This document shows, in pieces, positions 1-64,000 of a stretch of DNA of 64,000 nt. The position numbers were made by a program, and so were the translations under genes. This stretch comes from a virus. The stretch's first letter is position 1. Every line of letters starts with the position of its first letter. The notes below the pieces were generated by a model. It did no database searches. It had not been told where the DNA came from and saw only the letters and a program-made list of their open reading frames with translations. Where the stretch lies: IMG/VR virus record IMGVR_UViG_3300037420_001136, positions 27,891 through 91,890 of that record; one strand, 5' to 3'.

Positions 1-1302
1 CGCGTAGACGTCGCGGGCATAGAAGTGCAGCAGCGTATTCTCGTAGCTGCGGAGGACGAGGCTCGAAAGTTCATCAGAGATAAGACCGGCATCACAGTCG
101 GTAGCTGGGACAATGCTAATGAACTCTCTCGCATCTTCGACAAGCTCGGCATCAAGTACGGTCTTACCGAGAAAACCGAGCAGCCGAGTATCACTGCTGA
201 CTGGCTGCGCTCGCTACAGCACCCCGTCTCAGACGCTATTCTTCGTGGTCGTAAGACGAACAACATCAGATCCACCTTCCTAGAAAACAATCTCTTGAAC
301 TTGCAGGAAGGTGGACGCATCTTCCCGAACTTCAATCCTCTGAAGAAGGACGACGAGTCTGGCGGCGTTCTGGGCAAGGAGCTGAAGGCTGGCGTCAAGG
401 GCGCGCTGTCGGGCCGGTTCAGTTCCTCGCAGCCGAACTTCCAGAACTTTCCCTCTCCCGAGAAAGATCCTGAGCTCGGACTGATGGTTCGCAGCATGAT
501 CTTACCCGAGGAGGGTGAGTTCTGTCACGTCATGGACTACTCCTCGCAGGAGCCTCGCCTGACGGTTCACTTCGCCGAGGTCACCGGCTGTCACAAGGCG
601 TTCGAGATGGCCGAGCGCTTTAGGCAGAATCCTTACACCGACTTACACGACGAGACGCGCAAGAACGTGGCCTCGCTTCTTCAGGAGTGGTCTGATCCCA
701 AGTATCGCAAGAAGGCGAAGATAATTAATCTCGGCGTGGCCTACGGGATGGGTGGCGGAAAGCTGGCACTCTCCCTAGGTCTTCCGTACACCGAGGCCTC
801 CTTCATGAAGGGAGATCAGGAGTTTCAATATCTCAAGGCAGGCCCCGAGGCTCAGGAGCTGATGGCTGTCTTCGACGAGGCTGCGCCGTTCATCAAGCAG
901 CTCGCGCGAAAGGCCCAGAACGCAGTCAAGCAGAAGGGTTACATCAGGACGCCCATCGGACGACGATTCCGCTTCCCGAAGGAAGACGACGGTCGCACGT
1001 ACAAATTCCTGAACAAAGCTCTCAACCGACTTATTCAGGGCAGCGCCGCGGATATGACGAAGCTCGCGCTGCGGGACATGTATCGGGAGGGTATTCTTCC
1101 GATGGGAACCGTGCACGATGAAATTGACATCAGCTCCGCCTCTGTGAAGGAAGTTCATCGCGTGCAGGAAATCATGGAGACCGCGATGGAGCTGACGATT
1201 CCCATCAAGATCGACGTCGCGTCTGGCCGGAATTGGGGTGAGGCGTCCCAGGAGAAGGCCGGTGCAGAGAACTATAAGAAGTTTCTAGAAGGAGCACTAT
1301 AA
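1..1302 (+). CDS. polA: DNA polymerase, family A (C-terminal part; runs off the window start)
   Basis: Motifs SGRFSSSQPNFQN, DYSSQEPR (motif A), KAKIINLGVAYGMG (motif B), NRLIQGSAAD, VHDEI (motif C); frame open from base 1. Confidence 0.95.
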   Translation, partial: RVDVAGIEVQQRILVAAEDEARKFIRDKTGITVGSWDNANELSRIFDKLGIKYGLTEKTEQPSITADWLRSLQHPVSDAILRGRKTNNIRSTFLENNLLNLQEGGRIFPNFNPLKKDDESGGVLGKELKAGVKGALSGRFSSSQPNFQNFPSPEKDPELGLMVRSMILPEEGEFCHVMDYSSQEPRLTVHFAEVTGCHKAFEMAERFRQNPYTDLHDETRKNVASLLQEWSDPKYRKKAKIINLGVAYGMGGGKLALSLGLPYTEASFMKGDQEFQYLKAGPEAQELMAVFDEAAPFIKQLARKAQNAVKQKGYIRTPIGRRFRFPKEDDGRTYKFLNKALNRLIQGSAADMTKLALRDMYREGILPMGTVHDEIDISSASVKEVHRVQEIMETAMELTIPIKIDVASGRNWGEASQEKAGAENYKKFLEGAL

Positions 1303-1793
1303 TGGCTGAGTCTGGTATCGTTCCCGGAGAGGGAATTCTCTCGGAAGAGTATCGCTACGAGGATCTGTCAGTCTTTCCCGTCAACATCACTCCGTTGCGC
1401 GAGGGTGTGATAATTCCGAAGAAGGGGTCTATTCAGGCGGCGGGCTACGACTTAGTCGCCGTTGAAGATGTGACGATTCATGTTGGCGAGATCACGAAGA
1501 TCCCACTCGGCTTTGCGACCGCTCTGCATCCCGACATTCACTGCCGAATCGAGTCCCGCTCCGGCATGGCTCTCAAGGGTGCCGTCGTCGTCACTGGAGT
1601 GATAGACGCAGACTATCGCGGCGAGTGGAATGTAATCATGATCAATCTCGGCAAGAGTGTGTTGAATATTGCCAAGGGAGACCGCGTGGCCCAAGCTGTG
1701 TTTAGGCCCACGGTGCGGGCGCATTTTGAGCCTACGGTAGAGCTCTCAGAAACTCGCAGGGGCGTCGGTGGCTTTGGTAGCACAGGCAGGTGA
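1302..1793 (+). CDS. dut: dUTPase (trimeric type)
   Basis: AAGYDL, SRSGMA, GVIDADYRGE, GDRVAQ, RGVGGFGSTG motifs. Confidence 0.97.
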   Translation: MAESGIVPGEGILSEEYRYEDLSVFPVNITPLREGVIIPKKGSIQAAGYDLVAVEDVTIHVGEITKIPLGFATALHPDIHCRIESRSGMALKGAVVVTGVIDADYRGEWNVIMINLGKSVLNIAKGDRVAQAVFRPTVRAHFEPTVELSETRRGVGGFGSTGR

Positions 1794-1839
1794 GGTTTGC
1801 GCCGCCTGTTAGCTTAGGAGCGCTTAGAAAGGGCTTGAT

Positions 1840-2700
1840 GTGCAGCGACCTGCTCTCGTAGTAGACGGACTCTCCGTCTTCCACTCCACCGCTGGACCAG
1901 CGGCGAGATTGACGAATGGCTATACGTACTCGTTCGTCGTCTCTCTGACCTCAGCAGTCAAGAAATTCGGCCCCAAGGGAATCTTTGTCTGCTGGGATCG
2001 CAAGTCGAAGAAGCGACTAGAGCTTCATCCTGGATACAAGGCCGACCGCCCCTCCTCTATGAACGAGGACAAGGCGAAGATGATGGAGGACGTGAAGCGT
2101 TTCCTTCGCGTCATCGGTGCTGATCAGGTGTGGGCCGAGGACCACGAGGCTGACGACGTCGGAGCCATGCTGGCGAACACACTCGGCGTAGCGATTCTGG
2201 TCAGTAATGACAAGGACTGGCTGCAACTCGTACGTGATGGAGTCTCCGTCTACACGCGATGCCAGATCGCAGGACGCAAGGCCGAGAAGAAGCTCGTCAC
2301 GACGCACAACTTCGCGGAACTCACTGGATGGAATAGTCCTGAGCACCTAGTTCAAGGTCTCTGCGCGATGGGCGACGGAGTTGACAGAATCAACGGTCTC
2401 GAGGGCGTCGGCGAGATCACCGTGAAGAAGTACCTTCTTGGTATGTCAGTCGGACCTGTTCTTCAGGAACGACTCGAGACTTTCTTCGCCGGAGACCCTC
2501 TGTACGTCAGAAACCGTAAGCTGATTGAACTTCGGGACGTTAAGGAGATTCCTAACCTACAGGCGGACTGCGGTCGGTTTGACGAGCGATCAGTAAAGAG
2601 CTTGCTCGAGGAACTAGGCTTTGCTAGTATGCTTAAGAATTTCCCCGAGTGGGTGCGACCCTATAAGGAGGCTTATGCAGACATTTCTACCCTTTCGTAG
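1840..2700 (+). CDS. 5'-3' exonuclease / flap endonuclease (PolI N-terminal-like)
   Basis: VVDG, YKADR, EADD, SNDKDWLQL, GDGVDRINGLEGVG motifs. Confidence 0.9.
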   Translation: MQRPALVVDGLSVFHSTAGPAARLTNGYTYSFVVSLTSAVKKFGPKGIFVCWDRKSKKRLELHPGYKADRPSSMNEDKAKMMEDVKRFLRVIGADQVWAEDHEADDVGAMLANTLGVAILVSNDKDWLQLVRDGVSVYTRCQIAGRKAEKKLVTTHNFAELTGWNSPEHLVQGLCAMGDGVDRINGLEGVGEITVKKYLLGMSVGPVLQERLETFFAGDPLYVRNRKLIELRDVKEIPNLQADCGRFDERSVKSLLEELGFASMLKNFPEWVRPYKEAYADISTLS

Positions 2701-3121
2701 CTTCACGGCCTCGGCGCAAGTCTTAGACTATCGTCGGCTCGGCAAGCAGCGCGTTGAGTGTAGGCAGCTCCTCAGCGCGCTTCACTACGAGATTCAGGAC
2801 GGGGTTCTCGTAGCGACCCCCGACAGTAAGGCCGGTTGGCAGAATCATCCCGCTGCGAAGATGTGGCGTGGCTACGAGATGGCTCTCGCCGAGTACCAGC
2901 TCGTCATGATCCAGGAATGGATTCAGCGGGGCTACAAGAATACGATACAGGCAATCAATCCATCACAAGTCGGCGACCACTACCCCGATCCACCTTGGCT
3001 CGGTGACGAGGCTTTTCACGCTAGCCATCGCAGCAATCTTCTCCGCAAAGACCCTAAGCACTACGGACAGTTCGGCTGGACGGAGTCTCCCGATCTCGAG
3101 TACGTGTGGCCGGTACCGTGA
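2675..3121 (+). CDS. Pyrimidine-dimer DNA glycosylase / endonuclease V-like (MSMEG_6728 family)
   Basis: MQTFLP..LDYRRLGKQRVE, HPAAKMWRGY, PPWLGDEAFHASHRSNLLRKDP; AGGAGG RBS before ATG 2675. Confidence 0.85.
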   Translation: MQTFLPFRSFTASAQVLDYRRLGKQRVECRQLLSALHYEIQDGVLVATPDSKAGWQNHPAAKMWRGYEMALAEYQLVMIQEWIQRGYKNTIQAINPSQVGDHYPDPPWLGDEAFHASHRSNLLRKDPKHYGQFGWTESPDLEYVWPVP

Positions 3122-4566: not shown

Positions 4567-4567
4567 T

Positions 4568-5953: not shown

Positions 5954-5964
5954 GCATTTTGTGC

Positions 5965-5993
5965 TTGCCGCGCGAGCAGCGCCGTGGCACCTA
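5965..5993 (+). promoter_or_regulatory. sigma70-like promoter with spacer GA, upstream of the structured RNA
   Basis: TTGCCG-cgcGA(17 bp)-CACCTA. Confidence 0.6.
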
Positions 5994-5999
5994 GGCCCT

Positions 6000-6460
6000 A
6001 GGCGGCGCTGGCAGAGCGCATCACAAGCCTCCCGATGTTTTCCTCGCGGACTTCTGACGGGAACTCGAATACTCTGCAAGAGAGCAAGGCATTGAAGTTT
6101 GAAGCGTGGACCTCGGTCACTCTCCTGTAACAGGGATTGAGCGTTTCTTACGGAGCCGCGATGGACAATGGCGAGGGTTTGGGAGCGCACTAGCTGCGCT
6201 CTGCAGAATAGTCCTCCGGAAGCTTCGGCTGAAGGAAATGCATCCTCCGCTCTCGAACCGGCCCTGGAGGGAAACTTCCGCGAAGCCTCGGCGACGCAGT
6301 AGGAAGCGGTACCTCTAGGGCCTTCTCTCTTCTTCTCTCGTCGTGTGTCTAGCCCCGCACATGACCACGATGGGAGGCCCGGGAGCTTTCCTCGTCCCGC
6401 GAGGAACTTGAGTGCAGGGATTCACTCTTGGCGCACAGTGTCGTAGCTCCCGCTTCCTCT
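6000..6460 (+). ncRNA. Candidate large structured non-coding RNA
   Basis: No credible ORF; own promoter; nested helices 6027-33/6372-78, 6041-47/6171-77, 6183-89/6195-6201, 6260-70/6312-22, 6381-87/6445-51. Confidence 0.55.
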
Positions 6461-6472
6461 CTAAAATAAAAC

Positions 6473-6501
6473 TTGTCCAGCGAGCTGTGCTGAGCTAGAG
6501 C
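6473..6501 (+). promoter_or_regulatory. sigma70-like promoter with spacer GA (exonuclease-terminase operon)
   Basis: TTGTCC-agcGA(17)-TAGAGC. Confidence 0.6.
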
Positions 6502-6540
6502 TCACTAGTCTAGACTGATCAGACTAGGAAGAGAGTACTC

Positions 6541-9019: not shown

Positions 9020-9049
9020 TTGTCTTTAGAGGGCAAAACCGGCTAGGCT
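9020..9049 (+). promoter_or_regulatory. sigma70-like promoter with spacer GA (nrdJ)
   Basis: TTGTCT-ttaGA(18)-TAGGCT. Confidence 0.6.
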
Positions 9050-9085
9050 GGTACCCTTGGCGAGCAAACAAGAGGAATTAGACGG

Positions 9086-11044
9086 ATGCTTCAGAAGCAG
9101 CTCCCGACGCCGTATCAGAACTTCATTCACAAGTCGCGTTACGCAAGATTCTTAGACGAGTACGGCAGGCGGGAGGACTGGGATGAAACCGTCTCTCGCT
9201 ACTTCGACTACTTCGAGCAAGATCTCGCCGAGCATCACAACTACGTCGTTCCACGAACTCTTCGCTCCGAGCTGGAGGACGCGGTCTCCAATCTGCACGT
9301 GATGCCGTCCATGCGGGCGATGATGACGGCGGGGGAGGCTCTTCGCCGAGAGAATATCTCTGGCTTCAACTGCGCCTATCTCCCAATCGATCGCCCGAGA
9401 GCCTTCGCAGAAGTTTTGTACATCTTGATGTGCGGAACGGGCGTGGGCTTCAGCGTCGAGCGGCAGATCATCAAGCAGCTTCCGGAAGTGCCGAACGAGT
9501 TCTCCGACGTTCAGGACGAGATTGTAGTCGGCGACAGCAAGCGCGGTTGGGCCGAGGCCTACGAGGAGCTCATCAGACACCTGTACGGCGGCAGGGTGCC
9601 TAGGGTAAACACCAGCCTAGTCAGGAAGGCTGGGGAGCGTCTGAAGACGTTCGGAGGACGGGCCAGCGGCCCCAAGCCCCTGCTACAACTGTTTGATTTT
9701 ACCATCAAGATGTTCAAGGACGCCTCGGGACGTAAACTTAACTCCCTGGAAGTCCATGAGATCTGCACCAAGATCGGCGAGGTCGTTGTAGTCGGCGGCG
9801 TTCGTCGCAGTGCGGAGATCAGTCTTAGCAATCTCTCCGATCTTCGTATGCGCGATGCCAAGTCGGGCAACTGGAGTAACGAGAAGCCTCATCTTGCTCT
9901 CTCCAACAACTCGGTCGCCTACACCGAGAAGCCCGAGGTCGGAGCCTTCATGGAAGAGTGGCTCAGCATCTTCAAGTCCAACAGCGGCGAGCGCGGCATC
10001 TTCAATCGCTACGGCGCGATCGAGAAGATTCAGCGCTTGGGGCGTCGCGACCACAACTATGAGTTCGGCACCAATCCGTGCGGCGAGATTATTCTGCGGC
10101 CCCGTGGCCTCTGCAATCTTTCGGAGGCGGTAATTCGCGAGAACGATAGCGCCAAGGATATTCGCGAGAAGATTCGTCTCGCGGCCATCATCGGAACTTG
10201 GCAGTCTACCCAGACGCGCTACAACTTCGTAGAACCGGATTGGGCGAAGAATGCCCTGGAGGAGCGTCTCCTCGGCGTCAGCCTGACCGGCATTTACGAC
10301 AATGCTCTCATGCGCGGCGAGCAAGGTCTGGACAAGCTGGCGAACAATCTTCAGCACATGAAGCAGACGGCCATCAAAGCTAATCGCGTCGCGGCCAGCG
10401 AAATTGGGATTAATCCCAGCGTCGCTGTGACGACCATCAAGCCGAGTGGAACGGTCAGCCAGCTCGTGAACTGCCCCTCGGGGATTCACCAAGGTCATGC
10501 TGCGTACTACATTCGTCGCATCTCGCAGGATAACAAGGATCCGGTTACACGGTTCATGGGCGACGCGGGAATTCCAAACGAGCCGCACGACGCCAAGCCG
10601 CAGGATATGACAGTCTTCAGCTTCCCGATGCGTCTGGGAAGCACGACGGTCACTCGCGATCAGATCACAGCCATCGAGCATCTGGAGCTGGTCAGGACGT
10701 ACAATCTCAACTGGTCTGAGCATGCAGTCAGCTGCACCATCTCCGTCAAGGAGCACGAGTGGCCCGAGGTCGGTGGATGGGTCTACAAGAACTTCGACCT
10801 TCTCGCCGGCGTCAGCTTCCTGCCGCACTTTGAGGCGAGCAGCACCTATACTCAACTTCCGTACGAGACTATCGACAAAGCAACGTACGAGATGCTTGCA
10901 GCCGAGATTCCGGACGACATTGACTGGACTCAGCTGGAACTTTACGAGAAGGGTATCGACACCGTAGAAGGAACACGAGAATTTGCCTGCGTCGGCAACA
11001 TCTGCGAGATTGTCGAGCGCACCACTCCTATCGCAGCGGAGTAA
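9086..11044 (+). CDS. nrdJ: Class II (adenosylcobalamin-dependent) ribonucleotide reductase
   Basis: PSMRAM, FNCAY, GTGVGFSVE, VVGGVRRSA, GTNPCGEI, CNLSE, TIKPSGTVS, C-terminal CVGNIC; no small subunit nearby. Confidence 0.92.
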   Translation: MLQKQLPTPYQNFIHKSRYARFLDEYGRREDWDETVSRYFDYFEQDLAEHHNYVVPRTLRSELEDAVSNLHVMPSMRAMMTAGEALRRENISGFNCAYLPIDRPRAFAEVLYILMCGTGVGFSVERQIIKQLPEVPNEFSDVQDEIVVGDSKRGWAEAYEELIRHLYGGRVPRVNTSLVRKAGERLKTFGGRASGPKPLLQLFDFTIKMFKDASGRKLNSLEVHEICTKIGEVVVVGGVRRSAEISLSNLSDLRMRDAKSGNWSNEKPHLALSNNSVAYTEKPEVGAFMEEWLSIFKSNSGERGIFNRYGAIEKIQRLGRRDHNYEFGTNPCGEIILRPRGLCNLSEAVIRENDSAKDIREKIRLAAIIGTWQSTQTRYNFVEPDWAKNALEERLLGVSLTGIYDNALMRGEQGLDKLANNLQHMKQTAIKANRVAASEIGINPSVAVTTIKPSGTVSQLVNCPSGIHQGHAAYYIRRISQDNKDPVTRFMGDAGIPNEPHDAKPQDMTVFSFPMRLGSTTVTRDQITAIEHLELVRTYNLNWSEHAVSCTISVKEHEWPEVGGWVYKNFDLLAGVSFLPHFEASSTYTQLPYETIDKATYEMLAAEIPDDIDWTQLELYEKGIDTVEGTREFACVGNICEIVERTTPIAAE

Positions 11045-11886: not shown

Positions 11887-11903
11887 CGCAATTTTGGAGC
11901 ATC

Positions 11904-11937
11904 TACAGTGGGTTAGGCCGTAGGCCAGCCCACTGTA
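11904..11937. terminator. Hairpin between convergent gene blocks
   Basis: TACAGTGGG...CCCACTGTA inverted repeat between + and - blocks. Confidence 0.5.
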
Positions 11938-11995
11938 CCGCCCGCCAGCACGCTCAGAGAGCTTCCAAAACAGCTCCTCGAGCAGCATCCCACAG

Positions 11996-12301: not shown

Positions 12302-12401
12302 TCTAGAACTCCGTATGAGGTTCCGCCATCTCGGGGGTCTTCAACGACGGAACCTCAACTTGTGCGGCAAGCAGCAAGAGCGGGCAAGTGGCCCTAGGCC
12401 C

Positions 12402-12430
12402 TTGGTACCGCGCCGCGCCTCTTTGAGCAA
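12402..12430 (-). promoter_or_regulatory. sigma70-like promoter with spacer GA
   Basis: TTGCTC-aaaGA(17)-TACCAA on - strand. Confidence 0.6.
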
Positions 12431-19402: not shown

Positions 19403-19711
19403 TTACTTGTCGCGCCACACGACGACGTCGCCCTGCACGAACGCTTTGCCCTCCGACTCGTCGTCCTTCTCCATGACGGCGGCGGTGAACTCCATACGAT
19501 CTTCATCAGGCTTACGGTTTCTGCGTGCGTACTCCCGAGCCGACTTGTAGACGCGCTCGCGGAACTTGTCCGCCGTCTCGCCCTCGCGCATCTCGCTGTA
19601 GGGCACGACGAAGCTGTCGCCGACCTGCATGTCAGCAAACGGGTACTTGGAGTCGCCCGCACGCTTGGCCGGAAGATTGTCCGGCTTGGGGATCTTGGTA
19701 ATCTTAAACAC
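19403..19711 (-). CDS. Small putative DNA-binding phage protein
   Basis: KYPFADMQVGDSFVVP motif common in phage proteins; AAGGAG RBS before GTG. Confidence 0.65.
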   Translation of the reverse strand: MFKITKIPKPDNLPAKRAGDSKYPFADMQVGDSFVVPYSEMREGETADKFRERVYKSAREYARRNRKPDEDRMEFTAAVMEKDDESEGKAFVQGDVVVWRDK

Positions 19712-19757
19712 TGCCTTGCTCCTTGCTATTGTAGAAAACGCCTTGGGCGCTTTGGCC

Positions 19758-19786
19758 CTTATGGCACCTTGGCGCTCCGGACGCAA
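19758..19786 (-). promoter_or_regulatory. sigma70-like promoter with spacer GA
   Basis: TTGCGT-ccgGA(17)-CATAAG. Confidence 0.6.
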
Positions 19787-19876: not shown

Positions 19877-22348
19877 ATGGCAGAGAGCCTGTTTGCCGAT
19901 TTTCTGAAGTCCTCCCTGGACGTTAAGTCCATCAACGACTTCTTTGTCCAGAACCGCAACAAGACGCAGGAAGTACTCCAGCGACTTAGACCAGAAGGTC
20001 GAGTAGACGGTGGACGATTCAAGCTAGCCTCTGTTGAGGGTGGCGCAGGCTCCAGCTTCGACTACAATCTTCAGAACGGTCACTGGGGCGACTGGGCCGC
20101 GAACGACTCGCACCACGGGCTCGTGGGCTTCGTCTGTGCGACGATGAAGTGTTCCTCGGCACAGGCGATCCAATTCCTCATTGACGAGAAGTATCTCGAT
20201 GCCAAAGAAGTCAAGAAGGTTCTCGCTGCCTCGGAAGGCGATCCTCTCGTATTTCCAATACCGGAGGACCAGCAAGACTGGGAGTTTGTTCTACAGTCAG
20301 ATCCGCTTCGAAAAGATCGCGGCATCCTTCGCGAGCACTGGACCTTTCGTGACGTTGACGGATCCCTTCTCGGGTACAAGTATCGTGTAGACTCCCGTAA
20401 TACGAATAAGGAAGTCTACACCCTCACATATCGCGGACACTCCGGCTGGGTGAAGAAGGATTGGGCTAAGAAGATCGTACCACCATACGGACTCGAGCAG
20501 CTCGGCGACGGTACCCCGACGGTTCGTATTCTCTTCGTGGAGGGCGAGAAGGCTAAGGACAAGGCGCAGGAACTCTTCGGCGAACGCTGGAAGGTTCTCT
20601 CCTACAGCGGCGTCAAGGGCAGTCACGATCTATGGCTTCCTGACGAGGCGTTCTGGCAGGACGCAGAGGTCGTCATCTGGCCAGACAACGACACACCGGG
20701 AAGAGAAGCATCTCGTCGCATTCAACTTCTTCTCCAGGGACAGAAGTTCAAACCACGCGAGATCCGTATCGTACGAGTTGAGACGATTCCAGGATTATCT
20801 CCGGGCTGGGATCTTGGCGACTACGACGACTCTACTCCAATAGATCCGGACGTAGAGCTGGAGCGCGCCGAGGCGGTAGACTCCTTTGAGCACGTATGTC
20901 GCCAGTGGGTCTACGTCGCCAAGGAAGATAAGTTCTACAATCTCGAAGATCGCGAGATTATTCTCACACCCGCCGCCTTCGATCGTTATCTCACTCGCTA
21001 CGGCGATAAGTCCGGTTCCGCCAGCAAGAAGTTTCTCTCTGACTTGGACACTCACAAGTGCGAAGATCTGGACTTTCTCCCAGGCGTCGGCACCTTCATC
21101 AAAACTCCGGCTGGTAAGGTTCTTCTCAACGAATGGTATCCCTCGGCTGTATATTCTCGCGCGACGGAACTTGCTGGAGATCTCAGCGTCTCGGACGAAG
21201 AGATCGAAGAGAAGGCGAAGTACTTCATCGCACATCTCAACCGAGTAAGTGGGAACGAAGTCGTAGAACCTGAGAAGAATGCTGACGGACTACCAATCCT
21301 AGGTACGGAGCAACGGCTTCTCAGAGACGCTCTGGCGTTCTACTTTCACAACGTAATCTCACGTCCTATGGACAAGCAGGGTTGGTTCCCTGTTCTCGTG
21401 TCGGAGCACAACGGCACCGGCAAATCGTACTTCCGACGTGTCATGGCCGCGCTTCTTGGCGGGAAGCGCGTTCAGGAGCTAACTGTCCAGGAATACGTCT
21501 CTGACTACCAAGACTGGATGGATGGGACACTCTTCTACGAGTTGGGCGAGGTTAAGAGTCACGACTCGGCTGAGGTTTACGAGCTGCTGAAGAAGAATCA
21601 CAGCTACCTTCCATTCAACGACACCGATCTTCGCGACCGCTCTCAAGGCAATCGCCACATCAACATCAAGGGCACGAAGAAAAAGCTCCAGCGTAACTTC
21701 CTCAACGGCTTCATGACTTCCAACGACTTGTTCCCGCTGGCGCTGGCGAATAGCTCCGGTCTGGAGGGCAGCGATCGTCGCCTGTTAGCTGTGAACTGCG
21801 AGCAAATCTTAACCGAGGTGGAGGCCGATCAGCTCTTCGACGAGCTTAACGAGAATGCGGCATACATCGGCGCTTGGCTGCTGAGATTTAAGTCACCCTG
21901 CCCTTGGAATCCTGGCTGGGCACCAATCACGAAGCACAAGCGGCGCATGCTCGAGAAGGATCGCGAGCGCAGTGAAAATCGTGCCGACAAGTACGAGCTC
22001 GGCAAGTTCGATGAATTCTACCATCTCGTCAGGTGGGCCATAGAAGAGAAGATTGGGTTGTTCGCGCGACGAGTTCAGACGGCAGAGGGTATTCGCGAGT
22101 TGTGCGAGGCTAGACGGGTTAAGTTCCCGTGGGACATGGGACGATTCGAGCGCATTCTAGAGAAGGCTGGTCTCTTCAAAGGCCCCGTAATCGTGGTGGA
22201 GGGCCAGATGAAGAAGACCTACTCAGCCAATCCAGAGATGGAGGGTAAGCCGGCGACTGATTGGATCAAGGCTTCCAAGGAGCCTATCAACTCCACGAAG
22301 CCTCAGCGCGGCAAGGACAAGGATAACTCAGGCGGGGGCCACTTCTAA
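19877..22348 (+). CDS. Primase-helicase (TOPRIM + C-terminal P-loop NTPase)
   Basis: FVEGEKA, IWPDNDTPG, GWDLGD TOPRIM motifs; NGTGKS Walker A. Confidence 0.85.
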   Translation: MAESLFADFLKSSLDVKSINDFFVQNRNKTQEVLQRLRPEGRVDGGRFKLASVEGGAGSSFDYNLQNGHWGDWAANDSHHGLVGFVCATMKCSSAQAIQFLIDEKYLDAKEVKKVLAASEGDPLVFPIPEDQQDWEFVLQSDPLRKDRGILREHWTFRDVDGSLLGYKYRVDSRNTNKEVYTLTYRGHSGWVKKDWAKKIVPPYGLEQLGDGTPTVRILFVEGEKAKDKAQELFGERWKVLSYSGVKGSHDLWLPDEAFWQDAEVVIWPDNDTPGREASRRIQLLLQGQKFKPREIRIVRVETIPGLSPGWDLGDYDDSTPIDPDVELERAEAVDSFEHVCRQWVYVAKEDKFYNLEDREIILTPAAFDRYLTRYGDKSGSASKKFLSDLDTHKCEDLDFLPGVGTFIKTPAGKVLLNEWYPSAVYSRATELAGDLSVSDEEIEEKAKYFIAHLNRVSGNEVVEPEKNADGLPILGTEQRLLRDALAFYFHNVISRPMDKQGWFPVLVSEHNGTGKSYFRRVMAALLGGKRVQELTVQEYVSDYQDWMDGTLFYELGEVKSHDSAEVYELLKKNHSYLPFNDTDLRDRSQGNRHINIKGTKKKLQRNFLNGFMTSNDLFPLALANSSGLEGSDRRLLAVNCEQILTEVEADQLFDELNENAAYIGAWLLRFKSPCPWNPGWAPITKHKRRMLEKDRERSENRADKYELGKFDEFYHLVRWAIEEKIGLFARRVQTAEGIRELCEARRVKFPWDMGRFERILEKAGLFKGPVIVVEGQMKKTYSANPEMEGKPATDWIKASKEPINSTKPQRGKDKDNSGGGHF

Positions 22349-27156: not shown

Positions 27157-27185
27157 GGGAAGACTCTCCTTTACCTACAGCCTAC

Positions 27186-27214
27186 AGCATAAGGGCGCGT
27201 TGCTCCAGCCGCAA
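27186..27214 (-). promoter_or_regulatory. sigma70-like promoter with spacer GA
   Basis: TTGCGG-ctgGA(17)-TATGCT. Confidence 0.7.
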
Positions 27215-31254: not shown

Positions 31255-31286
31255 GGGGCGAGCCTCCTAGCTTCTGCTAACGTGCC

Positions 31287-31315
31287 ATTATGCGGCGGCA
31301 CAGCTCTTAGCGCAA
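31287..31315 (-). promoter_or_regulatory. sigma70-like promoter with spacer GA
   Basis: TTGCGC-taaGA(17)-CATAAT. Confidence 0.75.
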
Positions 31316-31671: not shown

Positions 31672-31878
31672 ACCTTCAACTGTTGGGCTTCTCGAAACCT
31701 AGCTACGGCCAAGTCATAGTCGGGTCTCCGAGCAGTTGCGTGCGCCGGCGATCAGGCGCCGCGGCCGATGGCGATCGGGATGGAAGTGCTCAAAGAAATA
31801 TCACGAGTAGGCTCGTGATAGATCACGTGCTGTACCTCATTTTCTTCTCCTTCGCTGGTTGATGCTACCAACACAAGC

Positions 31879-31907
31879 AGTATGGGGCGGTGCAGCTCGT
31901 CAGACAA
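31879..31907 (-). promoter_or_regulatory. sigma70-like promoter with spacer GA
   Basis: TTGTCT-gacGA(17)-CATACT. Confidence 0.7.
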
Positions 31908-39984: not shown

Positions 39985-40016
39985 GGGGTGGACCTCCTTT
40001 GCGTTGCTTACGGTGT

Positions 40017-40045
40017 ATTGTACGCGGGCGCTACTCCGCGGGCAA
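40017..40045 (-). promoter_or_regulatory. sigma70-like promoter with spacer GA
   Basis: TTGCCC-gcgGA(17)-TACAAT. Confidence 0.75.
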
Positions 40046-42495: not shown

Positions 42496-42528
42496 CGGGG
42501 ATAAACCTCCTGTCCAAGCTAGGCTTAC

Positions 42529-42557
42529 AGTATAAGGCGGGGTTGGTCGCGTGCCAA
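42529..42557 (-). promoter_or_regulatory. sigma70-like promoter with spacer GA
   Basis: TTGGCA-cgcGA(17)-TATACT. Confidence 0.75.
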
Positions 42558-44546: not shown

Positions 44547-44576
44547 AACCGAGTGCCCTACCTTGCTAACACAGCT

Positions 44577-44606
44577 ATAATGCGCCGCCACCCCTCCAGG
44601 TTGCAA
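44577..44606 (-). promoter_or_regulatory. sigma70-like promoter with GA 12 nt before -10
   Basis: TTGCAA-cctgGA(18)-CATTAT. Confidence 0.55.
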
Positions 44607-44825: not shown

Positions 44826-45482
44826 ATGAGCAAAAATCGTAACAAGGGCGGAGCTCGCCCGCAGAACGACGGCAGCGGCGGCGCGCTCACCGTCAGCGAC
44901 AGCACTGGCTCGGCCGAGGGCAAGGCGCCCGAGGGTGGCGAGTCCGGCGCTGCCGAGGCGGCTGCACCCGACCCGTTCGCCGACGTGCCGGTCACCAAGA
45001 TCGGCGACGACGTGGAGTTCAGCGACTTCTCGGACACGCCCACGGCGGATCCGCGCAAGTATGCCAACGTCCACGCGGCTGCGGTCGGCGATCGCCTTCC
45101 GACGGTCAAGGGCTGGAAGCACGAGCGTGCCATGCTCGTTCCGGGTACCAACCGGAAGGAGTTCAAGCAGGGCTCGGTGTACGGCACCATCCAGCAGATC
45201 GTCAACGCTGCTGGCCGCACCGGAATCCCGGCGTACGTCGTGGCTACCAAACTGCGTCGGCTCCAGGTCGGCAACAAGCGGTCGCACTACTGCGGCACCG
45301 GCGAGGTCGCCCAGCTCCCGCCCATCGGTTGGGCCGAGGGCTGGCTGAACACGGCGATTACCAAGAACATCGCCGGCGTCCACCCGACCAAGCAGGCTCC
45401 GGCCCTCCGCGAGGAGGTCACCGAGGGCGAGGCCAACGTCAACAAGGCCGAGTCGCAGGGCAAGCTCGCAGCCAACGGCTGA
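44826..45482 (+). CDS. Hypothetical protein, stand-alone transcription unit; possible paralog of island protein 51955-52473
   Basis: AGGAG RBS, own promoter and terminator, strongly GC3-biased codons; IGWAEGWLN motif. Confidence 0.75.
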   Translation: MSKNRNKGGARPQNDGSGGALTVSDSTGSAEGKAPEGGESGAAEAAAPDPFADVPVTKIGDDVEFSDFSDTPTADPRKYANVHAAAVGDRLPTVKGWKHERAMLVPGTNRKEFKQGSVYGTIQQIVNAAGRTGIPAYVVATKLRRLQVGNKRSHYCGTGEVAQLPPIGWAEGWLNTAITKNIAGVHPTKQAPALREEVTEGEANVNKAESQGKLAANG

Positions 45483-49497: not shown

Positions 49498-49526
49498 TTG
49501 GCGCGCGACGGAAGCCACCGCATACT
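49498..49526 (+). promoter_or_regulatory. sigma70-like promoter with spacer GA
   Basis: TTGGCG-cgcGA(17)-CATACT then GCAAGGGTAGGC. Confidence 0.7.
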
Positions 49527-49765
49527 GCAAGGGTAGGCGGCAGTAGGAGTTAGGGCCGTGTTTCTCTGTACCATCGGGTGTGTCTGACAGGTCGCCCGCC
49601 CAAAAGTCAGCCGAGGGATGGCGGTGCGCGTCCATCTCCCGCAGCGGGCGCTATGTCCGCTCAGGCATTCCGCGAGTCAATCGCTGCTGCCGTCCGGACG
49701 CGGCTCAACGTCCGGCTTCGCAAGCCGTGGTTCTCACCACGGTTTCCGTTGAGAAAGGGGAAGAT

Positions 49766-50994: not shown

Positions 50995-51023
50995 TAGGTG
51001 CGCGAGCAGGATCGAGGCATACT
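50995..51023 (+). promoter_or_regulatory. sigma70-like promoter with spacer GA (weak -35)
   Basis: TAGGTG-cgcGA(17)-CATACT then GCAAGGGTAGGC. Confidence 0.6.
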
Positions 51024-51053
51024 GCAAGGGTAGGCAGTAAAAGGACTTGGGCC

Positions 51054-51800: not shown

Positions 51801-51838
51801 GCGCCAAACACTCGGTTCACCGCGCCAAACACTCGGTT
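51801..51838 (+). repeat. Tandem 17-bp direct repeat at the left edge of the island
   Basis: GCGCCAAACACTCGGTT at 51801 and 51822 (21-bp period). Confidence 0.85.
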
Positions 51839-51872
51839 TGCCGCAAATCTGGTCCGCGCCGCCGCGCCAAGG

Positions 51873-51901
51873 TTGCCATGCTGCCAAGGTGCGCGCATAT
51901 A
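51873..51901 (+). promoter_or_regulatory. sigma70-like island promoter (no GA)
   Basis: TTGCCA-17-CATATA. Confidence 0.65.
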
Positions 51902-51954
51902 CAGGCCAGCCGTTGCCATTGGGGCAGCGGCCAGCAAGCAAAGGTACAAACAAC

Positions 51955-52473
51955 ATGGCAAACCGTAACAACAGCAAAACCGCCGCCACTGCCAACGCCA
52001 AGGTAGCGCCCGCCTTGCGCGCCGCTGCCATTGTGGCGCGGCACGGCATGGCAGGGCAGGCGCGCGCCATTGCCGCTACTGGCGCAGCCGCCGCTAGCGC
52101 CAAGCGTTACAGCGCGCGCCTTGGCAGCCTTAACCCCGCATTTGCGGCCGCCACCTTTACGCTAACGCCACTTGGCAAACAGGCAGTGGCGGCCAACGGT
52201 TGTATTGGCAGCAAGGGCCAGCCAACAGTTATGGGCTTGTTTGCCGTAGCGTTGGCTAACGCCACAGCGGCCAACAATGGCGCGCCCGCCACAGGGCAGC
52301 AAGTTTGCTTGGCAATGCTTGGCAACCCGCAGCTTATGCAAGCTGCCTTGGCAACTAAGGCAGCAGGCACGCACCTAATACCCGCCAACACAACGGCAAT
52401 GGGCTGGGCGCAGGGCTATGTTAACGGCTTGTGCCGTAGCGCGCACGGCCTAGCCAAAAAGGCACTAGCCTAA
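51955..52473 (+). CDS. Island protein 1: 172 aa, Ala-rich, basic, no Asp/Glu
   Basis: GA-free SD AAAGGT 9 nt before ATG; TAA stop; MGWAQGYVN motif. Confidence 0.75.
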   Translation: MANRNNSKTAATANAKVAPALRAAAIVARHGMAGQARAIAATGAAAASAKRYSARLGSLNPAFAAATFTLTPLGKQAVAANGCIGSKGQPTVMGLFAVALANATAANNGAPATGQQVCLAMLGNPQLMQAALATKAAGTHLIPANTTAMGWAQGYVNGLCRSAHGLAKKALA

Positions 52474-52535
52474 CGCCTAGGGGCGCGGCTAACCGCCGCG
52501 CCCCAACCCGCCACACAAGCAAAAGGTAACGCAAC

Positions 52536-52769
52536 ATGTACACGCCAACACAAGCCAAGCCAGCCGCCGCGCCAACCCGCGCAAGCTACATGCGCGCCGC
52601 CCTGTACCATTACGCGCCCGCGCCCTATGCGCCGCGCCGTTACGGCAAGGTGCGCAGTATGGCCGCAATGCTGGCAAGCTATAGCCCCAAGGTACGCCAA
52701 GCTTACATGGCGCGGCAGTGGGCGCGCATTGCCAACGGCCAAGCGCCTAATTGGCCGCGCAAAAGCTAG
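52536..52769 (+). CDS. Island protein 2: 77 aa, Ala/Arg/Tyr-rich, no Asp/Glu
   Basis: Leader AAGCAAAAGGTAACGCAAC resembles that of protein 1; TAG stop; terminator follows. Confidence 0.7.
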   Translation: MYTPTQAKPAAAPTRASYMRAALYHYAPAPYAPRRYGKVRSMAAMLASYSPKVRQAYMARQWARIANGQAPNWPRKS

Positions 52770-52802
52770 GCCGGTTTTAAGCGCCACACAGGGCCGCAAC
52801 CC

Positions 52803-52836
52803 GCGCCCGCTACCTAGGTAGCGGGCGCTTTGCTTT
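52803..52836 (+). terminator. Intrinsic terminator closing the island operon
   Basis: GCGCCCGCTAC-CTAG-GTAGCGGGCGC-TTTGCTTT. Confidence 0.8.
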
Positions 52837-52986
52837 GCGCCTGTACGTGCACGCTAGGTGGCATAGCGGCCAAGGCGCTATGGTACCTAGGCCCCATATA
52901 CCCCACGCCCACCACGCGGGCCTCAGTCACTGTAGGCGCAGAATTCTCTCGAAAATTCGAAGAATTCTCACTCCTCTCATCGTCAC

Positions 52987-56152: not shown

Positions 56153-56159
56153 AAAGGGC

Positions 56160-57330: not shown

Positions 57331-57519
57331 GTGTCCGAGAGGGTGCGCCCCGCTCTCTGCACCCTGTTTCTCGTAGTGCTGGTCATTGGCTTCTGTAGCC
57401 ACTCTCAGAACACGGCGCACCGCCAGCTAACCCGCACAAGCCAAGGCACCCACGCACGCGCTCGATGAGGCATCTGAGGCCTCCCAGGTTGGTCGCAAAA
57501 GTTTTTTGCCAACGGGGGC

Positions 57520-57616: not shown

Positions 57617-58567
57617 ATGCCCATGACTCTCGTGGAGGCCGCGAAGCTCGAGACCCGCAATCTCGTGCGCGCTGGCGTCATCGAACAGTTTGCTCGCACT
57701 TCGGAAATTCTCCGCGTCCTTCCGTTCCAGAATATCCAGGGTAACGCTCTCGCCTACAACCGCGAGGAGCAGCTTCCTGGTGTCGCCTTCCGCGCGGTGA
57801 ACGAGGGATATCCGGAGAGCGTCGGCGTCATCAATCCGGCGACCGAGACCCTGTACATCGCCGGCGGCGATCTGGACGTCGATCGCTTCATCATCCAGAC
57901 GATGGGTGCGGGAGTTCGCTCCACCCACGAGAACATGAAGATCAAGGCGCTCGCTCAGGCATGGACGACCAAGTTCATCAAGGGCGACACCACGCTTCAG
58001 CCACGCGAGTTCGACGGCCTTCAGGTTCGCCTGACGGGCTACAATCTGCTCTCGGCGGGTACGGACGGTCCCACGGGAACGAACGCTGCGGGCGGCGATG
58101 CTCTCTCGCTCGACGTGCTCGATCAGGCGATCGACAAGGTGCCGAACGCCAACGCGATTCTTATGTCGCGCGCGCTGCGTCGCAAGTTCAAGGCGGCGCG
58201 GAACAACGTCAACATCTCGGGCCAGATCGGCCTGGAGAAGGATGACTTCGGTCGTCCCGTCCAGACCTACGCCGGTCTTCCCATTCTCACCACCTACGGC
58301 GATGCTGTCACGCCCGACCCGCTCGGCTTCAACGAAGTCAGTCCGGGCGGCGGCGCGAACACGAGCACGTCGGTCTATGTTCTGAACTTCGGCATCGACG
58401 GTGTCGCAGGCATTCAGAACGGCGGCATGGACGTGCGAGATCTCGGCGAGCTTCAGTCGCTCCCGGTCTATCGCACTCGCGTCGAGTGGTACTCGGGATT
58501 CGGTATCTTCAACGGCTCGGCCGCGGTCCGAATCCAGGGCATCAAGAACGCCGCTCTGGTCGCCTAA
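57617..58567 (+). CDS. Major capsid protein
   Basis: TLVEAAKL, LPF.NI.GNA..YNRE..LP.VAFR.VNE.Y, GGDLDVDRF, FDGL..RL, YRTRVEWY.G; highly biased codons. Confidence 0.88.
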   Translation: MPMTLVEAAKLETRNLVRAGVIEQFARTSEILRVLPFQNIQGNALAYNREEQLPGVAFRAVNEGYPESVGVINPATETLYIAGGDLDVDRFIIQTMGAGVRSTHENMKIKALAQAWTTKFIKGDTTLQPREFDGLQVRLTGYNLLSAGTDGPTGTNAAGGDALSLDVLDQAIDKVPNANAILMSRALRRKFKAARNNVNISGQIGLEKDDFGRPVQTYAGLPILTTYGDAVTPDPLGFNEVSPGGGANTSTSVYVLNFGIDGVAGIQNGGMDVRDLGELQSLPVYRTRVEWYSGFGIFNGSAAVRIQGIKNAALVA

Positions 58568-59537: not shown

Positions 59538-59560
59538 TCAGTTCCGCCAGCCAGCGGACT

Positions 59561-59600
59561 GAGCGCCCGTCGCAGTCGTCGCGCTGCGGCGGGCGCTTTC
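59561..59600 (+). terminator. Hairpin terminator after capsid operon
   Basis: GAGCGCCCGTCGCAG...CTGCGGCGGGCGCTTT. Confidence 0.6.
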
Positions 59601-59621
59601 ATTAGAAGGGGTGTTCTAGAA

Positions 59622-60295: not shown

Positions 60296-60308
60296 GGAGT
60301 ACCAGACC

Positions 60309-61403: not shown

Positions 61404-61412
61404 GGAGTCGTT

Positions 61413-62123: not shown

Positions 62124-62128
62124 CCGCG

Positions 62129-63541
62129 ATGTTTACCTTCGCGGCAGCACAGCGTTTTTCAAATGCCTACGGTTCTTCCGTAGTGAGTCGTAGCTTCAGC
62201 TTCGCCTCAGGCTATAGAATTATTTGCATCTGGTTCGCCGATAATTCCACGCGGACAATCTCCAGTGTGGTTTGCAACGGTAACTCGTGCGTCAGGATAG
62301 ATACTGGTTCTACTTCGGACGCTGTTCAAATATGGGCTGATACTTCTGGTTCTCGCACCGCAGCGAGTGAGACAGTAACTGTAACCTTCAATCTTACTGT
62401 AGATCTAGTCATGCTGGGCGGGGTTACGGCTAACTCTTCTCTAGACATTAGTCCCATCTTCACTACTCGACTGAGTGGATCAATAGCAGACCCGAAGGTC
62501 TACCCATCTCCGATCAATGTACCGGACGCCGGTGCTGCTCTGAGCTTTAACGTATTCTCCGCGAGTGGGGGAATAACCCCGAAGAACGGCACAGAGATCG
62601 GAGAGCTAGTTGACGTCAGTAGCTATGAGTGGGTAGAATTCGGACAGGGAATCTACAATGTAACGTGGAACTCTGGATCTCAGAGTACTACGGACGGCGT
62701 TACGATTGTCTTTGAACCGATTACACCCTCCAGCACGGTCACTGAGACAGCCATCTATAATTTCAACGGAGCTACTCCCGGGGCAGCTACGATCTCCGGA
62801 AGTCACATCACTGCGGATGTAATTTCTCTCGGCTCTACAATCATAGCAACGGTGGGTGACAGCAGCGTCGGCTATCCAACACCTGAGTTGAGAGCTATTC
62901 CCGCTGTGGCGACGACTGCCGCAGCAGCGGTGACTAGCAACGACTATTTTCAATTCACTATTCACGGCGGTGCGGGTCTATTCCTCAAGCGCATCCAGCT
63001 CAGGGCAGCGCGCGGTGGATCTTCAACGCCTCGCGGGTTCATTATTCGTTCTAGCATTGACGGGTTCGCTAGTGATCTCATACCCGATAATCCTGTACCC
63101 ACGATCAGAACGACTTACACGGAGTATGACTTCTCTACCAACTTAGACCTTACCTCGCCTGTTACAATTCGCTTCTACATCTACGGTCCGATCGCCGGAG
63201 GCTCGTCCATTGAGTTTGACGACTTCATCTTCTCTGTACCAGTCGCGGGAAGTGATACGACTGCTCCCGTCATCACAAATCGCACTACCGTCAACCTGAA
63301 GCCCAAGACACCTTTATCGCTCACCCTAACCTCCGACGATCCTGCGGCGGTTTGGACTAAGACGGGCGGAGCAGATCAGGCGCTCTTCACTCTAAGCGGA
63401 AATACTCTAACTCTTCCAGCGCAGAATGCGAGAGTGACTCGGCAAGTTCAGATCACTGCCACCGATGCTGCGAGTAACTCAAGCAACGCGACCATCACGG
63501 TAAAGACGACTGATTTTAAGCGGAGATCGAGGGCCTACTGA
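62129..63541 (+). CDS. Putative receptor-binding/fibre protein with C-terminal cadherin-like domain
   Basis: Ser/Thr-rich beta protein; DTTAPVIT...GGADQALFTLSG..L...V.ITATDAA.N; lower GC than neighbours. Confidence 0.6.
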   Translation: MFTFAAAQRFSNAYGSSVVSRSFSFASGYRIICIWFADNSTRTISSVVCNGNSCVRIDTGSTSDAVQIWADTSGSRTAASETVTVTFNLTVDLVMLGGVTANSSLDISPIFTTRLSGSIADPKVYPSPINVPDAGAALSFNVFSASGGITPKNGTEIGELVDVSSYEWVEFGQGIYNVTWNSGSQSTTDGVTIVFEPITPSSTVTETAIYNFNGATPGAATISGSHITADVISLGSTIIATVGDSSVGYPTPELRAIPAVATTAAAAVTSNDYFQFTIHGGAGLFLKRIQLRAARGGSSTPRGFIIRSSIDGFASDLIPDNPVPTIRTTYTEYDFSTNLDLTSPVTIRFYIYGPIAGGSSIEFDDFIFSVPVAGSDTTAPVITNRTTVNLKPKTPLSLTLTSDDPAAVWTKTGGADQALFTLSGNTLTLPAQNARVTRQVQITATDAASNSSNATITVKTTDFKRRSRAY

Positions 63542-64000
63542 TGAACCAGCTATCAATTCAGCAGATCTTCTCGGCTACGGGTGTGATCTATGGTCGCAGC
63601 TCTGCCGGAACGGGTCAGGGAGAGGAGCTCACTCCTGCCGCCGCGAGAACGCTCCTAGGAGTCTCGTCAGGAAGCATCACGTTCGTCCTCGACGGAGGCG
63701 GAGCAGTCATTGCGGCTGGACAAACTCTCGATCTTCCCGACTTTCCCTATGCAGCGAACATCACAGGCTGGACCATCACAGGCGATGTATCCGGCTCGGC
63801 CGTAGTTACGATCTCTAAGGCTACCTACGCCAACTATCCGACCTTCACGGCAATCTCGGGAACGGAGAAACCGACGCTCTCGTCAGCCCAGAAGAATCAA
63901 GATCTAGCCATCTCAACCTGGACCACCGCTCTAGCTCAGGGAGATGTTCTGAGGGCTAGTGTGGACAGCGCTTCCACCGTGAAGCGTCTGACGGTCACTA
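63541..64000 (+). CDS. Structural protein (partial, runs off window end)
   Basis: TGATG coupling; GRSSAGTGQGEELT, ITFVLDGGGAVI, I.GWTI..D.SGS.V. Confidence 0.6.
   Translation, partial: MNQLSIQQIFSATGVIYGRSSAGTGQGEELTPAAARTLLGVSSGSITFVLDGGGAVIAAGQTLDLPDFPYAANITGWTITGDVSGSAVVTISKATYANYPTFTAISGTEKPTLSSAQKNQDLAISTWTTALAQGDVLRASVDSASTVKRLTVT

Follow-up and report, generated by a model that had tools for sequence, protein, structure and literature searches.

How can a single dinucleotide be wholly absent from one transcription unit of a viral genome and enriched elsewhere in the same DNA? The question is raised by a 64,000-nucleotide (nt) stretch of DNA, hereafter the window, which comprises bases 27891-91890 of the 91,890-bp IMG/VR virus record IMGVR_UViG_3300037420_001136. 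A first-pass annotation had proposed that GA/TC is in excess throughout this DNA and missing from promoters and intergenic hairpins, as expected if a base mark protects bulk DNA but obstructs open-complex formation. The window contains an island of 1070 nt in which neither GA nor TC occurs, and a family of predicted promoters has been cleared of the same dinucleotide. We put the probability at about 0.55 that the phage itself hypermodifies thymidine after replication in the step 5'-TC-3' (GA on the complementary strand), and that DNA which unaided host proteins must read has been purged of TC/GA. The logic of the first-pass annotation is partly supported, with the mark moved from G to T. In the following, G000 is the genome under study, G001, G002 and G003 are other IMG/VR contigs of one lineage, and L034-L037 are metagenome contigs.

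The GA/TC-free island

The island is a complete unit. It contains a promoter, two genes with AAGG-type ribosome sites, an intercistronic hairpin and a 13+13 palindrome (positions in the window):

51854..52923, GA/TC-free island, 1070 nt, no GA/TC on either strand, sharp edges against GA/TC-dense flanks
51873..51901, + strand, island promoter predicted from sequence: TTGCCA, 17-nt spacer, CATATA
51955..52473, + strand, island gene 1, 172 amino acids (aa), no Asp or Glu, rich in Ala, Gly and Thr, basic
52536..52769, + strand, island gene 2, 77 aa, no Asp or Glu, rich in Arg, Tyr and Pro
52803..52828, + strand, perfect 13+13-nt palindrome with a T-rich run, likely terminator of the island unit

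The island is the strongest evidence that GA/TC has been purged, by selection acting on the DNA itself and on both strands. The expected number of GA/TC is 120 from its own base composition, or 179 at the genome rate, and the observed number is zero (log10 P about -85). No comparable gap was found for any other of the 10 symmetric dinucleotides in the genomes checked. Exactly one giant GA/TC gap per genome is present in four related genomes and four metagenome contigs. The dinucleotide is missing from every position where it could occur, namely NTC, NGA and TCN codons, codon junctions and the non-coding flanks. Serine is encoded only by AGY and phenylalanine only by TTT, and there are no NTC and no NGA codons. 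When gene 1 was recoded with the codon usage of the genome, 44 +/- 5 GA/TC resulted (minimum 29 in 5000 recodings), and gene 2 treated in the same way gave 17 +/- 3; both genes contain none. In the island promoter the -35 element is free of GA, and the spacer GA of the other promoters described below is missing. Alignment shows this promoter to be conserved in G003, L034 and G001.

The unit is kept with 0-1 GA/TC in G003 (1102 nt), in G001/G002 (570+682 nt) and in all four metagenome contigs L034-L037. The island DNA is only 53-75% identical between lineages (245-470 differences), apart from the near-identical pair L035/L037 (91%), and one third of the possible substitutions in the island would create a GA/TC. 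The family of the 172-aa protein comprises 83 clusters in a collection of 5.8 billion proteins, with no Asp and two Glu in about 14,000 residues. The 77-aa family comprises 40 clusters and is found on the same contigs. The context of eight loci encoding island proteins was examined.

Neither island protein has a Pfam or PHROG match. The AlphaFold2 (AF2) model of the 172-aa protein has a predicted local distance difference test (pLDDT) score of 87.6. Its C-terminal half is matched, weakly, by winged-helix DNA-binding domains and by nothing else (Z <= 4.7), and a Foldseek search of the PDB with the model returned nothing at E <= 0.001. The models are weak evidence that the island products may be DNA binders. 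Another gene in the window may encode a relative of the gene 1 product:

44826..45482, + strand, conserved early gene, 218 aa, normal Asp/Glu content

The 218-aa protein is highly conserved (95 clusters) and has a disordered N-terminus and a winged-helix-like domain at residues 114-191. The two proteins share a GWA[EQ]G[WY]xN motif. BLASTP aligns 9 residues (E = 0.013), and profile-profile comparison gives a probability of 8% over 14 columns. The AF2 models have the same order of helices and at least 14 weak winged-helix matches in the PDB in common, all with Z <= 5.3. These similarities are suggestive of an ordinary-coded relative, or 'recoded twin', of island gene 1.

Two tandem 21-nt repeats (GCGCCAAACACTCGGTT...) lie at 51801-51842, just upstream of the island edge, and a related sequence is present in G003. 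The repeats could be an operator. Directly downstream of the island, G001/G002 and G003 have a gene of about 195 aa (L004:5271-5858, L006:9143-9907), which is absent from G000. Its product has motifs that recall C5 cytosine methyltransferases (FSG, PPC, ENP) and has no Pfam match.

Cleared promoters and hairpins

GA/TC-free tracts of ordinary length are unusual in their position. Apart from the island, 26 of the 49 tracts of at least 29 nt are intergenic, although intergenic DNA makes up only 11.7% of the genome (P = 2e-12). At matched thresholds the intergenic share of the long free tracts is 0-28% for the other nine symmetric dinucleotides. The corresponding fractions for GA/TC are 18/37 in G003, 0/21 in phage PhiJL001 and 1/13 in phage Pam3. 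The lengths themselves are within chance: a geometric model predicts a longest gap of 53 nt, and the three longest ordinary gaps measure 54, 52 and 52 nt. The non-randomness therefore rests on the placement of the tracts and on the 1070-nt tract, because lengths of 30-54 nt are not exceptional. The six tracts named in the first-pass annotation proved to be free of GA/TC and fully intergenic. They are listed here with two genes that they adjoin:

5975..6014, GA/TC-free intergenic tract that begins directly after the conserved GA of a CTTG-N6-GA promoter
9030..9062, GA/TC-free intergenic tract over a promoter upstream of the ribonucleotide reductase gene
9086-11044, ribonucleotide reductase gene, downstream of the preceding tract
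11903..11954, GA/TC-free intergenic hairpin where two gene blocks converge
12379..12420, GA/TC-free intergenic tract over a minus-strand promoter, 41 free nt after the spacer GA
19735..19776, GA/TC-free intergenic tract in the divergent region 19403-19711(-) / 19877-22348(+)
19877-22348, + strand, primase/helicase gene, facing 19403-19711(-) across the divergent region
57409..57462, intergenic, 54 nt, the longest ordinary GA/TC-free tract, upstream of 57617-58567

The upstream regions reveal a family of predicted promoters in which CTTG(C) and GA(G) are separated by six bases, a TAnnnT-like -10 element follows 10-12 bases further on, and a 25-35-nt leader ends in AGGAG. The -35 and -10 hexamers, about 17 nt apart and present in at least 15 copies located 25-35 nt before AGGAG-ATG, point to a sigma70-type family. 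The cleared cores are listed here, and the last line gives positions of the spacer GA in promoters with the fixed steps described below:

27168..27204, - strand, early-type core, CTTG-N6-GA followed by 36 free nt with a TATGCT -10, up to the AGGAG ribosome site
31274..31305, - strand, 31 free nt after the GA
31862..31897, - strand, 35 free nt
39996..40035, - strand, 39 free nt
42514..42547, - strand, 33 free nt
44552..44595, - strand, 43 free nt
49512..49547, + strand, CATACT -10, conserved leader
51015..51044, + strand, CATACT -10, conserved leader
27205, 29672, 31306, 31898, 40036, 42548, 46571, 48831, 49507, 50104 and 51004, positions of the spacer GA

At least 10 copies of the promoter have 31-43 GA/TC-free nt after the spacer GA, and 25 or more free nt follow just 2% of all intergenic GAs. 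Across 20 promoter sites with a mean pairwise identity of 36%, a total of 21 GA/TC were counted in the 30-nt segment that follows the spacer GA. The promoter consensus fails to explain this clearing, because shuffling the columns of the alignment gives 49.6 +/- 5.1 GA/TC, with a minimum of 30 in 2000 shuffles. The earlier proposal that promoter melting and initially transcribed regions are cleared is borne out for the downstream half of the spacer, the -10 element, the start site and the leader of this one family. It does not extend to all promoters. A profile anchored on start codons and averaged over 50 upstream regions has only a mild dip in GA/TC density, from about 0.17 to about 0.13. The clearing is limited to one promoter family and some hairpins and does not concern all genes.

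The same promoters retain GA/TC at fixed positions. A second GA is found exactly 22 nt upstream of the spacer GA, a distance of about two helical turns, in 14-15 of the 20 promoters, and a (G)TC is located about 16 nt upstream of the spacer GA. Three fixed GA/TC steps flank the -35 element and adjoin the zone that has been cleared of GA/TC.

The clearings have some other sequence features. CTAG-rich motifs are often present in intergenic clearings. Exact GGYACCYWGG words, which include KpnI- or AvrII-like palindromes, are found at 5986, 19763, 24988 and 52882, at the -10 element of a subclass of cleared promoters. This word was considered as a second motif and rejected, with 26 one-mismatch matches against 16.4 +/- 4 expected, of which only the four exact copies fall in clearings.

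GA/TC excess in the bulk of the genome

The genome-wide excess of GA/TC described in the first-pass annotation was confirmed. The symmetrised rho(GA/TC) is 1.376 in the window, 1.365 in the whole genome and 1.20-1.49 in each 4-kb block; other symmetrised values in the window are 1.17 for AG/CT, 0.78 for CC/GG and 0.69 for TA. The window has 10.07 GA+TC per 60 nt on average, compared to about 7.2 predicted from base composition. The three lines counted by hand in the earlier work (starting at 9841, 30121 and 37021) indeed contain 10, 13 and 13.

The excess does not disappear when the amino acid sequence is held constant. Coding sequences contain 13,734 GA+TC, compared to 12,311 +/- 40 when synonymous codons are permuted within genes (ratio 1.116, z = +36), and rho is not brought down to 1 by this control. 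The expectation is 11,092 (ratio 1.24) if the proteins are kept and the codons are drawn from position-specific base frequencies, and 10,412 from position-specific composition alone. At fixed codon usage the excess sits wholly at codon borders, where NNT|CNN is at 2.0 times expectation and CC and TT are at 0.51 and 0.57. Codon choice follows the same tendency. The ratios GGA/GGG, CGA/CGG and AGA/AGG are 2.35, 1.41 and 1.44, whereas the remaining ten A/G-ending codon pairs prefer G 2-8 fold (A:G ratio 0.13-0.45). The first-pass annotation had singled out GGA, CGA, AGA, TCT and CTC as unusually common. CTC is indeed the top Leu codon, with a relative synonymous codon usage (RSCU) of 2.33, and GGA, CGA and AGA exceed their G-ending twins, but CGA, AGA and TCT, with RSCU values of 0.80, 0.65 and 0.98, are not common in absolute terms. 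The bases beside TC are neutral (0.92-1.18), and the unit is therefore the plain dinucleotide, in which 39% of all T are found.

The magnitude of the excess is less unusual than the first-pass annotation supposed. Other GC-rich phages have rho(GA/TC) values of 1.34 (Pam3), 1.34 (PhiJL001), 1.22 (M6) and 1.24 (part of PaMx11). The codon-permutation ratio is 1.12 in G000 and G003, 1.08 in Pam3, 1.06 in G001 and 1.03 in PhiJL001 and M6, which places G000 and G003 at the upper end of the range and still within it. The comparison phages are not clean controls, because every one of them carries thymidine-modification genes. The bulk excess may be partly ordinary. The idea that the mark is protective in bulk DNA is not established by these values, since rho is only 1.00-1.13 in relatives that carry the island and 1.22-1.34 in GC-rich phages without clearings.

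TCGA is the most under-represented tetranucleotide genome-wide (0.66 in a second-order Markov model), although the two dinucleotide steps that it contains are both in excess; GATC, at 0.93, is close to expectation. Recognition sites containing TC number 22 for EcoRI, 648 for Sau3AI, 457 for TaqI, 445 for HinfI and 50 for XhoI, and TC-free sites number 565 for HhaI, 391 for HaeIII, 15 for KpnI, 21 for AvrII and, with TG, 279 for NlaIII and 234 for HpyCH4V.

DNA-modification genes

The first-pass annotation had recommended a search for hypermodification genes in the rest of the genome, and a module of the 5-hydroxymethyl-deoxyuridine (5-hmdU) type with a glycosyltransferase is present there. Located 1.3-5.6 kb upstream of the window, these are the sole DNA-modification genes found, and they are of the thymidine type. 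The module (genome 22315-29192) encodes a Pplase1-like helical protein, a glycosyltransferase, a ThyA-like hydroxymethylase, an HD 5'-deoxynucleotidase and PolA, and also contains DUF3310. Its principal members and the sole part of the nucleotide/modification module inside the window are as follows:

genome 22315-23208 (L003:8315-9208), PF18723 helical protein, 297 aa, E = 4e-43, spanning the whole 281-position model
upstream module, glycosyltransferase, TAGT E = 1.6e-12, phrog_842 E = 3.7e-39
genome 24993-26057, thymidylate synthase homolog, PF00303, E = 3.5e-21
window 1302..1793, + strand, dUTPase, identified by Pfam and PHROG

The Pfam name of PF18723 is '5-hmdU DNA kinase, helical domain', and homologs are labelled aGPT-Pplase1 in some phage records. 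The protein found here consists of the helical domain alone, without a kinase domain. PF18723 is also present in G001 and G003, both of which carry the island. The thymidylate synthase homolog is 36% identical to gp24 of PhiJL001, which is likened to the SPO1 dUMP hydroxymethylase in its record. By this homology, it is a putative dUMP hydroxymethylase supplying 5-hmdU.

No P-loop 5-hmdU DNA kinase (5-HMUDK) was detected among the proteins scanned, which represent part of the open reading frames of the genome, and the small open reading frames beside PF18723 gave no match. No aGPT-Pplase2 or amino-acid or diamine:DNA transferase was seen among roughly 70 proteins scanned, without a dedicated search. 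The complete record was searched in six frames for other modification enzymes. There was no match to TGT-family DpdA (PF01702) at E <= 0.1, with 14 of 14 control genomes positive, and none to Tet/JBP (PF12851), C5 (PF00145), N4/N6 or D12 methyltransferases, with positive controls in each case. From the methyltransferase-TET-glycosyltransferase set, only the TAGT-like glycosyltransferase is present. The dpdA, folE and queCDE genes suggested in the first-pass annotation fit a modified G, but no TGT/DpdA is present and the module is of the thymidine type. As it combines 5-hmdU with a glycosyltransferase, the T of TC is a likelier carrier of the mark than the G of GA.

A proposed role for thymidine hypermodification

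We infer the existence of the mark, its seat on the T of TC and its hindrance of RNA polymerase from the observations above. The ThyA-like dUMP hydroxymethylase, aided by the dUTPase and the HD nucleotidase, would put 5-hmdU into new DNA instead of T. Decoration of 5-hmdU in the TC context, probably by addition of a sugar, would then fall to the TAGT/phrog_842-type glycosyltransferase, for which the helical Pplase1-like protein is perhaps a guide. The group would be present on about 39% of T, or once per 6 bp. Selection would have purged TC/GA from DNA that unaided host proteins must read. This DNA would comprise the cores of the sigma70-type promoter family (about -24 up to the ribosome site), a number of hairpins, and one complete two-gene transcription unit, whose proteins have paid with the loss of every Asp and Glu. 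In the rest of the genome the density of TC/GA is high.

The purging of a whole unit has two candidate explanations. It could be a bootstrap unit, readable on the fully marked incoming genome, or a safe house from modification-dependent nucleases (PMC12191111). Bulky major-groove groups are reported to block bacterial RNA polymerase at promoters, whereas 5-hmU itself enhances transcription (PMC11550810). END nucleases sense hypermodified DNA (PMC12191111).

Several points weigh against this proposal. The phage is uncultured, and the mark is predicted here from sequence. In PhiJL001, which has the most similar module, an island is missing, and not one of the 21 long GA/TC-free tracts falls in intergenic DNA. 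Three GA/TC steps are conserved at fixed positions in the promoters, and the mark is therefore not simply excluded there; it might be read at these steps. The lack of a 5-HMUDK or an amino-acid:DNA transferase among the proteins scanned suggests that the chemistry differs from that of the characterised pathways. The bulk excess is untied to the island, with rho at 1.13 in G001/G002 and about 0.9-1.1 in the flanks of L034-L037. Finally, AG/CT is raised (1.17) and CC/GG lowered (0.78), so part of the GA/TC signal could be a general avoidance of CC/GG.

A more far-reaching reading, which we consider decidedly speculative, is that thymine decoration is a positional code for transcription. Core promoters and the bootstrap unit would be mark-free so that naive host RNA polymerase could start on the decorated incoming genome. 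The three fixed TC/GA steps would be mark-dependent recognition points, and promoter activity would report whether DNA is parental (marked) or new (unmarked). The acid-free, winged-helix-like island protein is possibly the reader of the fixed steps under such a code.

Alternative explanations

The most serious alternative is that two phenomena have been superimposed: the clearings and the island were selected, and the bulk excess is no more than what GC-rich coding DNA normally shows (NTC and GAN codons, avoidance of CC/GG), without selection for protection. It is quite possible, though we give it somewhat less than an even chance. The rho values of Pam3, PhiJL001, M6 and part of PaMx11 (1.34, 1.34, 1.22 and 1.24) agree with it, as do the low values of island-carrying relatives (only 1.00-1.13), the CC/GG value of 0.78 and the value of 0.51 for CC across codon borders. 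It is harder to reconcile with the excess that persists at fixed protein and codon usage, 1.12 in G000 and G003 compared to 1.03-1.08 in PhiJL001, M6, Pam3 and G001, with the twofold excess at T-C codon borders, and with the preference of NGA over NGG in this codon class only. Furthermore, the phages used for comparison all carry thymidine-modification genes and do not provide clean controls. Chance alone, combined with promoter and terminator consensus sequences that happen to be GA/TC-free, is hardly credible. Taken singly, tracts of 30-54 nt do not stand out from the expected maximum, the genome has 48 tracts of at least 30 nt, fewer than the roughly 76 of a rough geometric estimate, and GC-only hairpin stems cannot hold GA/TC. 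However, diverged lineages retain the island (log10 P about -85), the 21 GA/TC observed in the promoter cores compare with 49.6 after column shuffles in which the consensus is preserved, and intergenic enrichment is unique to GA/TC. Chance is refuted for the island and the promoter family.

Purging might also be driven by a host factor, either an END or type IV nuclease acting on marked DNA or a TC-reading nuclease or deaminase acting on unmarked DNA, the island being a safe house for early counter-defence genes. END nucleases act early on hypermodified phages, which need inhibitors for plaquing (PMC12191111), and the island is self-contained, with its own promoter and terminator and proteins of no known family. 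This explanation seems unlikely. A safe house leaves unexplained the cleared promoter cores of many genes with TC-full coding parts, and an attack on TC in unmarked DNA should deplete TC genome-wide, the opposite of what is observed. The island products, on weak evidence, resemble DNA binders and not known inhibitors. Very improbable is a mark on another base, be it the G of GA (7-deazaguanine), the C of TC (5mC or 5hmC-sugar) or the A of GA (m6A). The precedent is phage CAjan, which has preQ0 at GA and GGC (PMC7544227); in addition, the glycosyltransferase also matches a TET-associated family, and a small gene with cytosine-methyltransferase-like motifs lies beside the island in G001/G003. 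That gene is missing from G000 and has no Pfam match, and the six-frame search of the complete record, in which controls were detected, found no TGT/DpdA, Tet_JBP, C5, N4/N6 or D12.

Comparison with known systems

Thymidine hypermodification at TG/TC has been described in M6, ViI and PhiW-14 (PMC6449724), and Acinetobacter phage SH-Ab 15599 modifies TG more than TC (PMC13458397). Pbunaviruses F8 and 14-1 have sugar-type thymine groups at TG (PMC12191111). The present phage resembles the 5-hmdU systems of Pseudomonas phages M6 and PaMx11, Salmonella ViI, Delftia PhiW-14 and SH-Ab 15599 in that its dUMP hydroxymethylase homolog adjoins PolA, and its PF18723 gene occupies the same place as gp50 of PaMx11. 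A partial, context-dependent replacement of T is expected in such systems; 39% of T are in TC here, compared to a reported 14-50%, and the published contexts consist of T followed by G or C (PMC6449724, PMC13458397). It differs in having a glycosyltransferase and in that neither a P-loop kinase nor an amino-acid/diamine transferase was found among the proteins scanned. The implied context is also different, TC alone, because TG/CA is abundant in the island. Searches of M6, Pam3 and PhiJL001 found no dinucleotide-free island and no intergenic clearing.

PhiJL001, a Keylargovirus of Alphaproteobacteria, has the same gene order: Pplase1-like gp19, glucosyltransferase gp22, hydroxymethylase gp24 and PolA gp28. 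Amino acid identity is 28-37%, and rho(GA/TC) is 1.34 in PhiJL001, but the island genes, the island and the clearings are all missing from it. With Pbunaviruses F8 and 14-1 this phage would share a sugar-like thymine group in a two-letter context, as proposed here, and the need of hypermodified phages for early counter-defence. The context is TG in F8 and 14-1 and would be TC here; family and genes are different, and no effect on genome architecture was reported there (PMC12191111). The 7-deazaguanine system of CAjan, the model behind the genes suggested in the first-pass annotation, likewise has a short GA-containing context (PMC7544227). It needs DpdA and preQ0 synthesis genes, and there is no DpdA in this record.

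Restriction-site avoidance is a known case in which selection takes short words out of phage DNA. A first-expressed unit with a special status is exemplified by the leading early regions of T7 and T5. Unlike in these cases, one dinucleotide is here wholly gone from one unit and enriched elsewhere.

As of 2018 hypermodification motifs were 'not yet known' (PMC5889632), and the context of thymidine hypermodification has been called unknown or drawn indirectly from restriction digests (PMC5889632, PMC6449724, PMC13458397). The present case suggests that such a context can be read from the genome itself, as the word purged from promoters and from one unit points to the modified step. The prediction is that the T of TC is marked, that about 39% of T are modified and that a 1.07-kb stretch is unmodified. 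The phage would represent a natural experiment on a bulky DNA mark confronting the RNA polymerase of the host. It would also show that a constraint on the DNA can be so strong that two conserved proteins lose their Asp and Glu. Should the rule hold more widely, modification contexts of uncultured phages could be predicted from dinucleotide-free islands.

Genome and gene content

The ends of the record share a 127-bp repeat, and the 91,890-bp sequence is probably a circular assembly. Its GC content is 57%, and our gene call gives 149 genes with a coding share of 88%. Pfam and PHROG identify the gene set of a siphophage, including an 1846-aa tape measure protein, a tail chaperone, an adaptor and a DUF4055 portal, as well as PolA, an SF1 helicase, a class II ribonucleotide reductase, a ligase, a large terminase, a primase/helicase and an endolysin. 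These scans of the phage proteins revealed no phage RNA polymerase. A megablast search with a 10 kb query found no near relative among 50,697 phage records. Protein identity to this phage is 57-91% in G003 and 42-80% in G001/G002; PhiJL001 and M6, both Mesyanzhinovviridae, are distant relatives with 24-38%. Searches of genome contigs with the island protein profile and with ribonucleotide reductase gave no bacterial relative, and with it no host and no host signature.

A T4 endonuclease V-type pyrimidine-dimer DNA glycosylase is encoded at 2675-3121 (PF03013, E = 7e-21) in this phage, which is predicted to replace thymine. The largest gene-free gap of the tightly packed genome, at 5954-6540, is located downstream of a cleared promoter.

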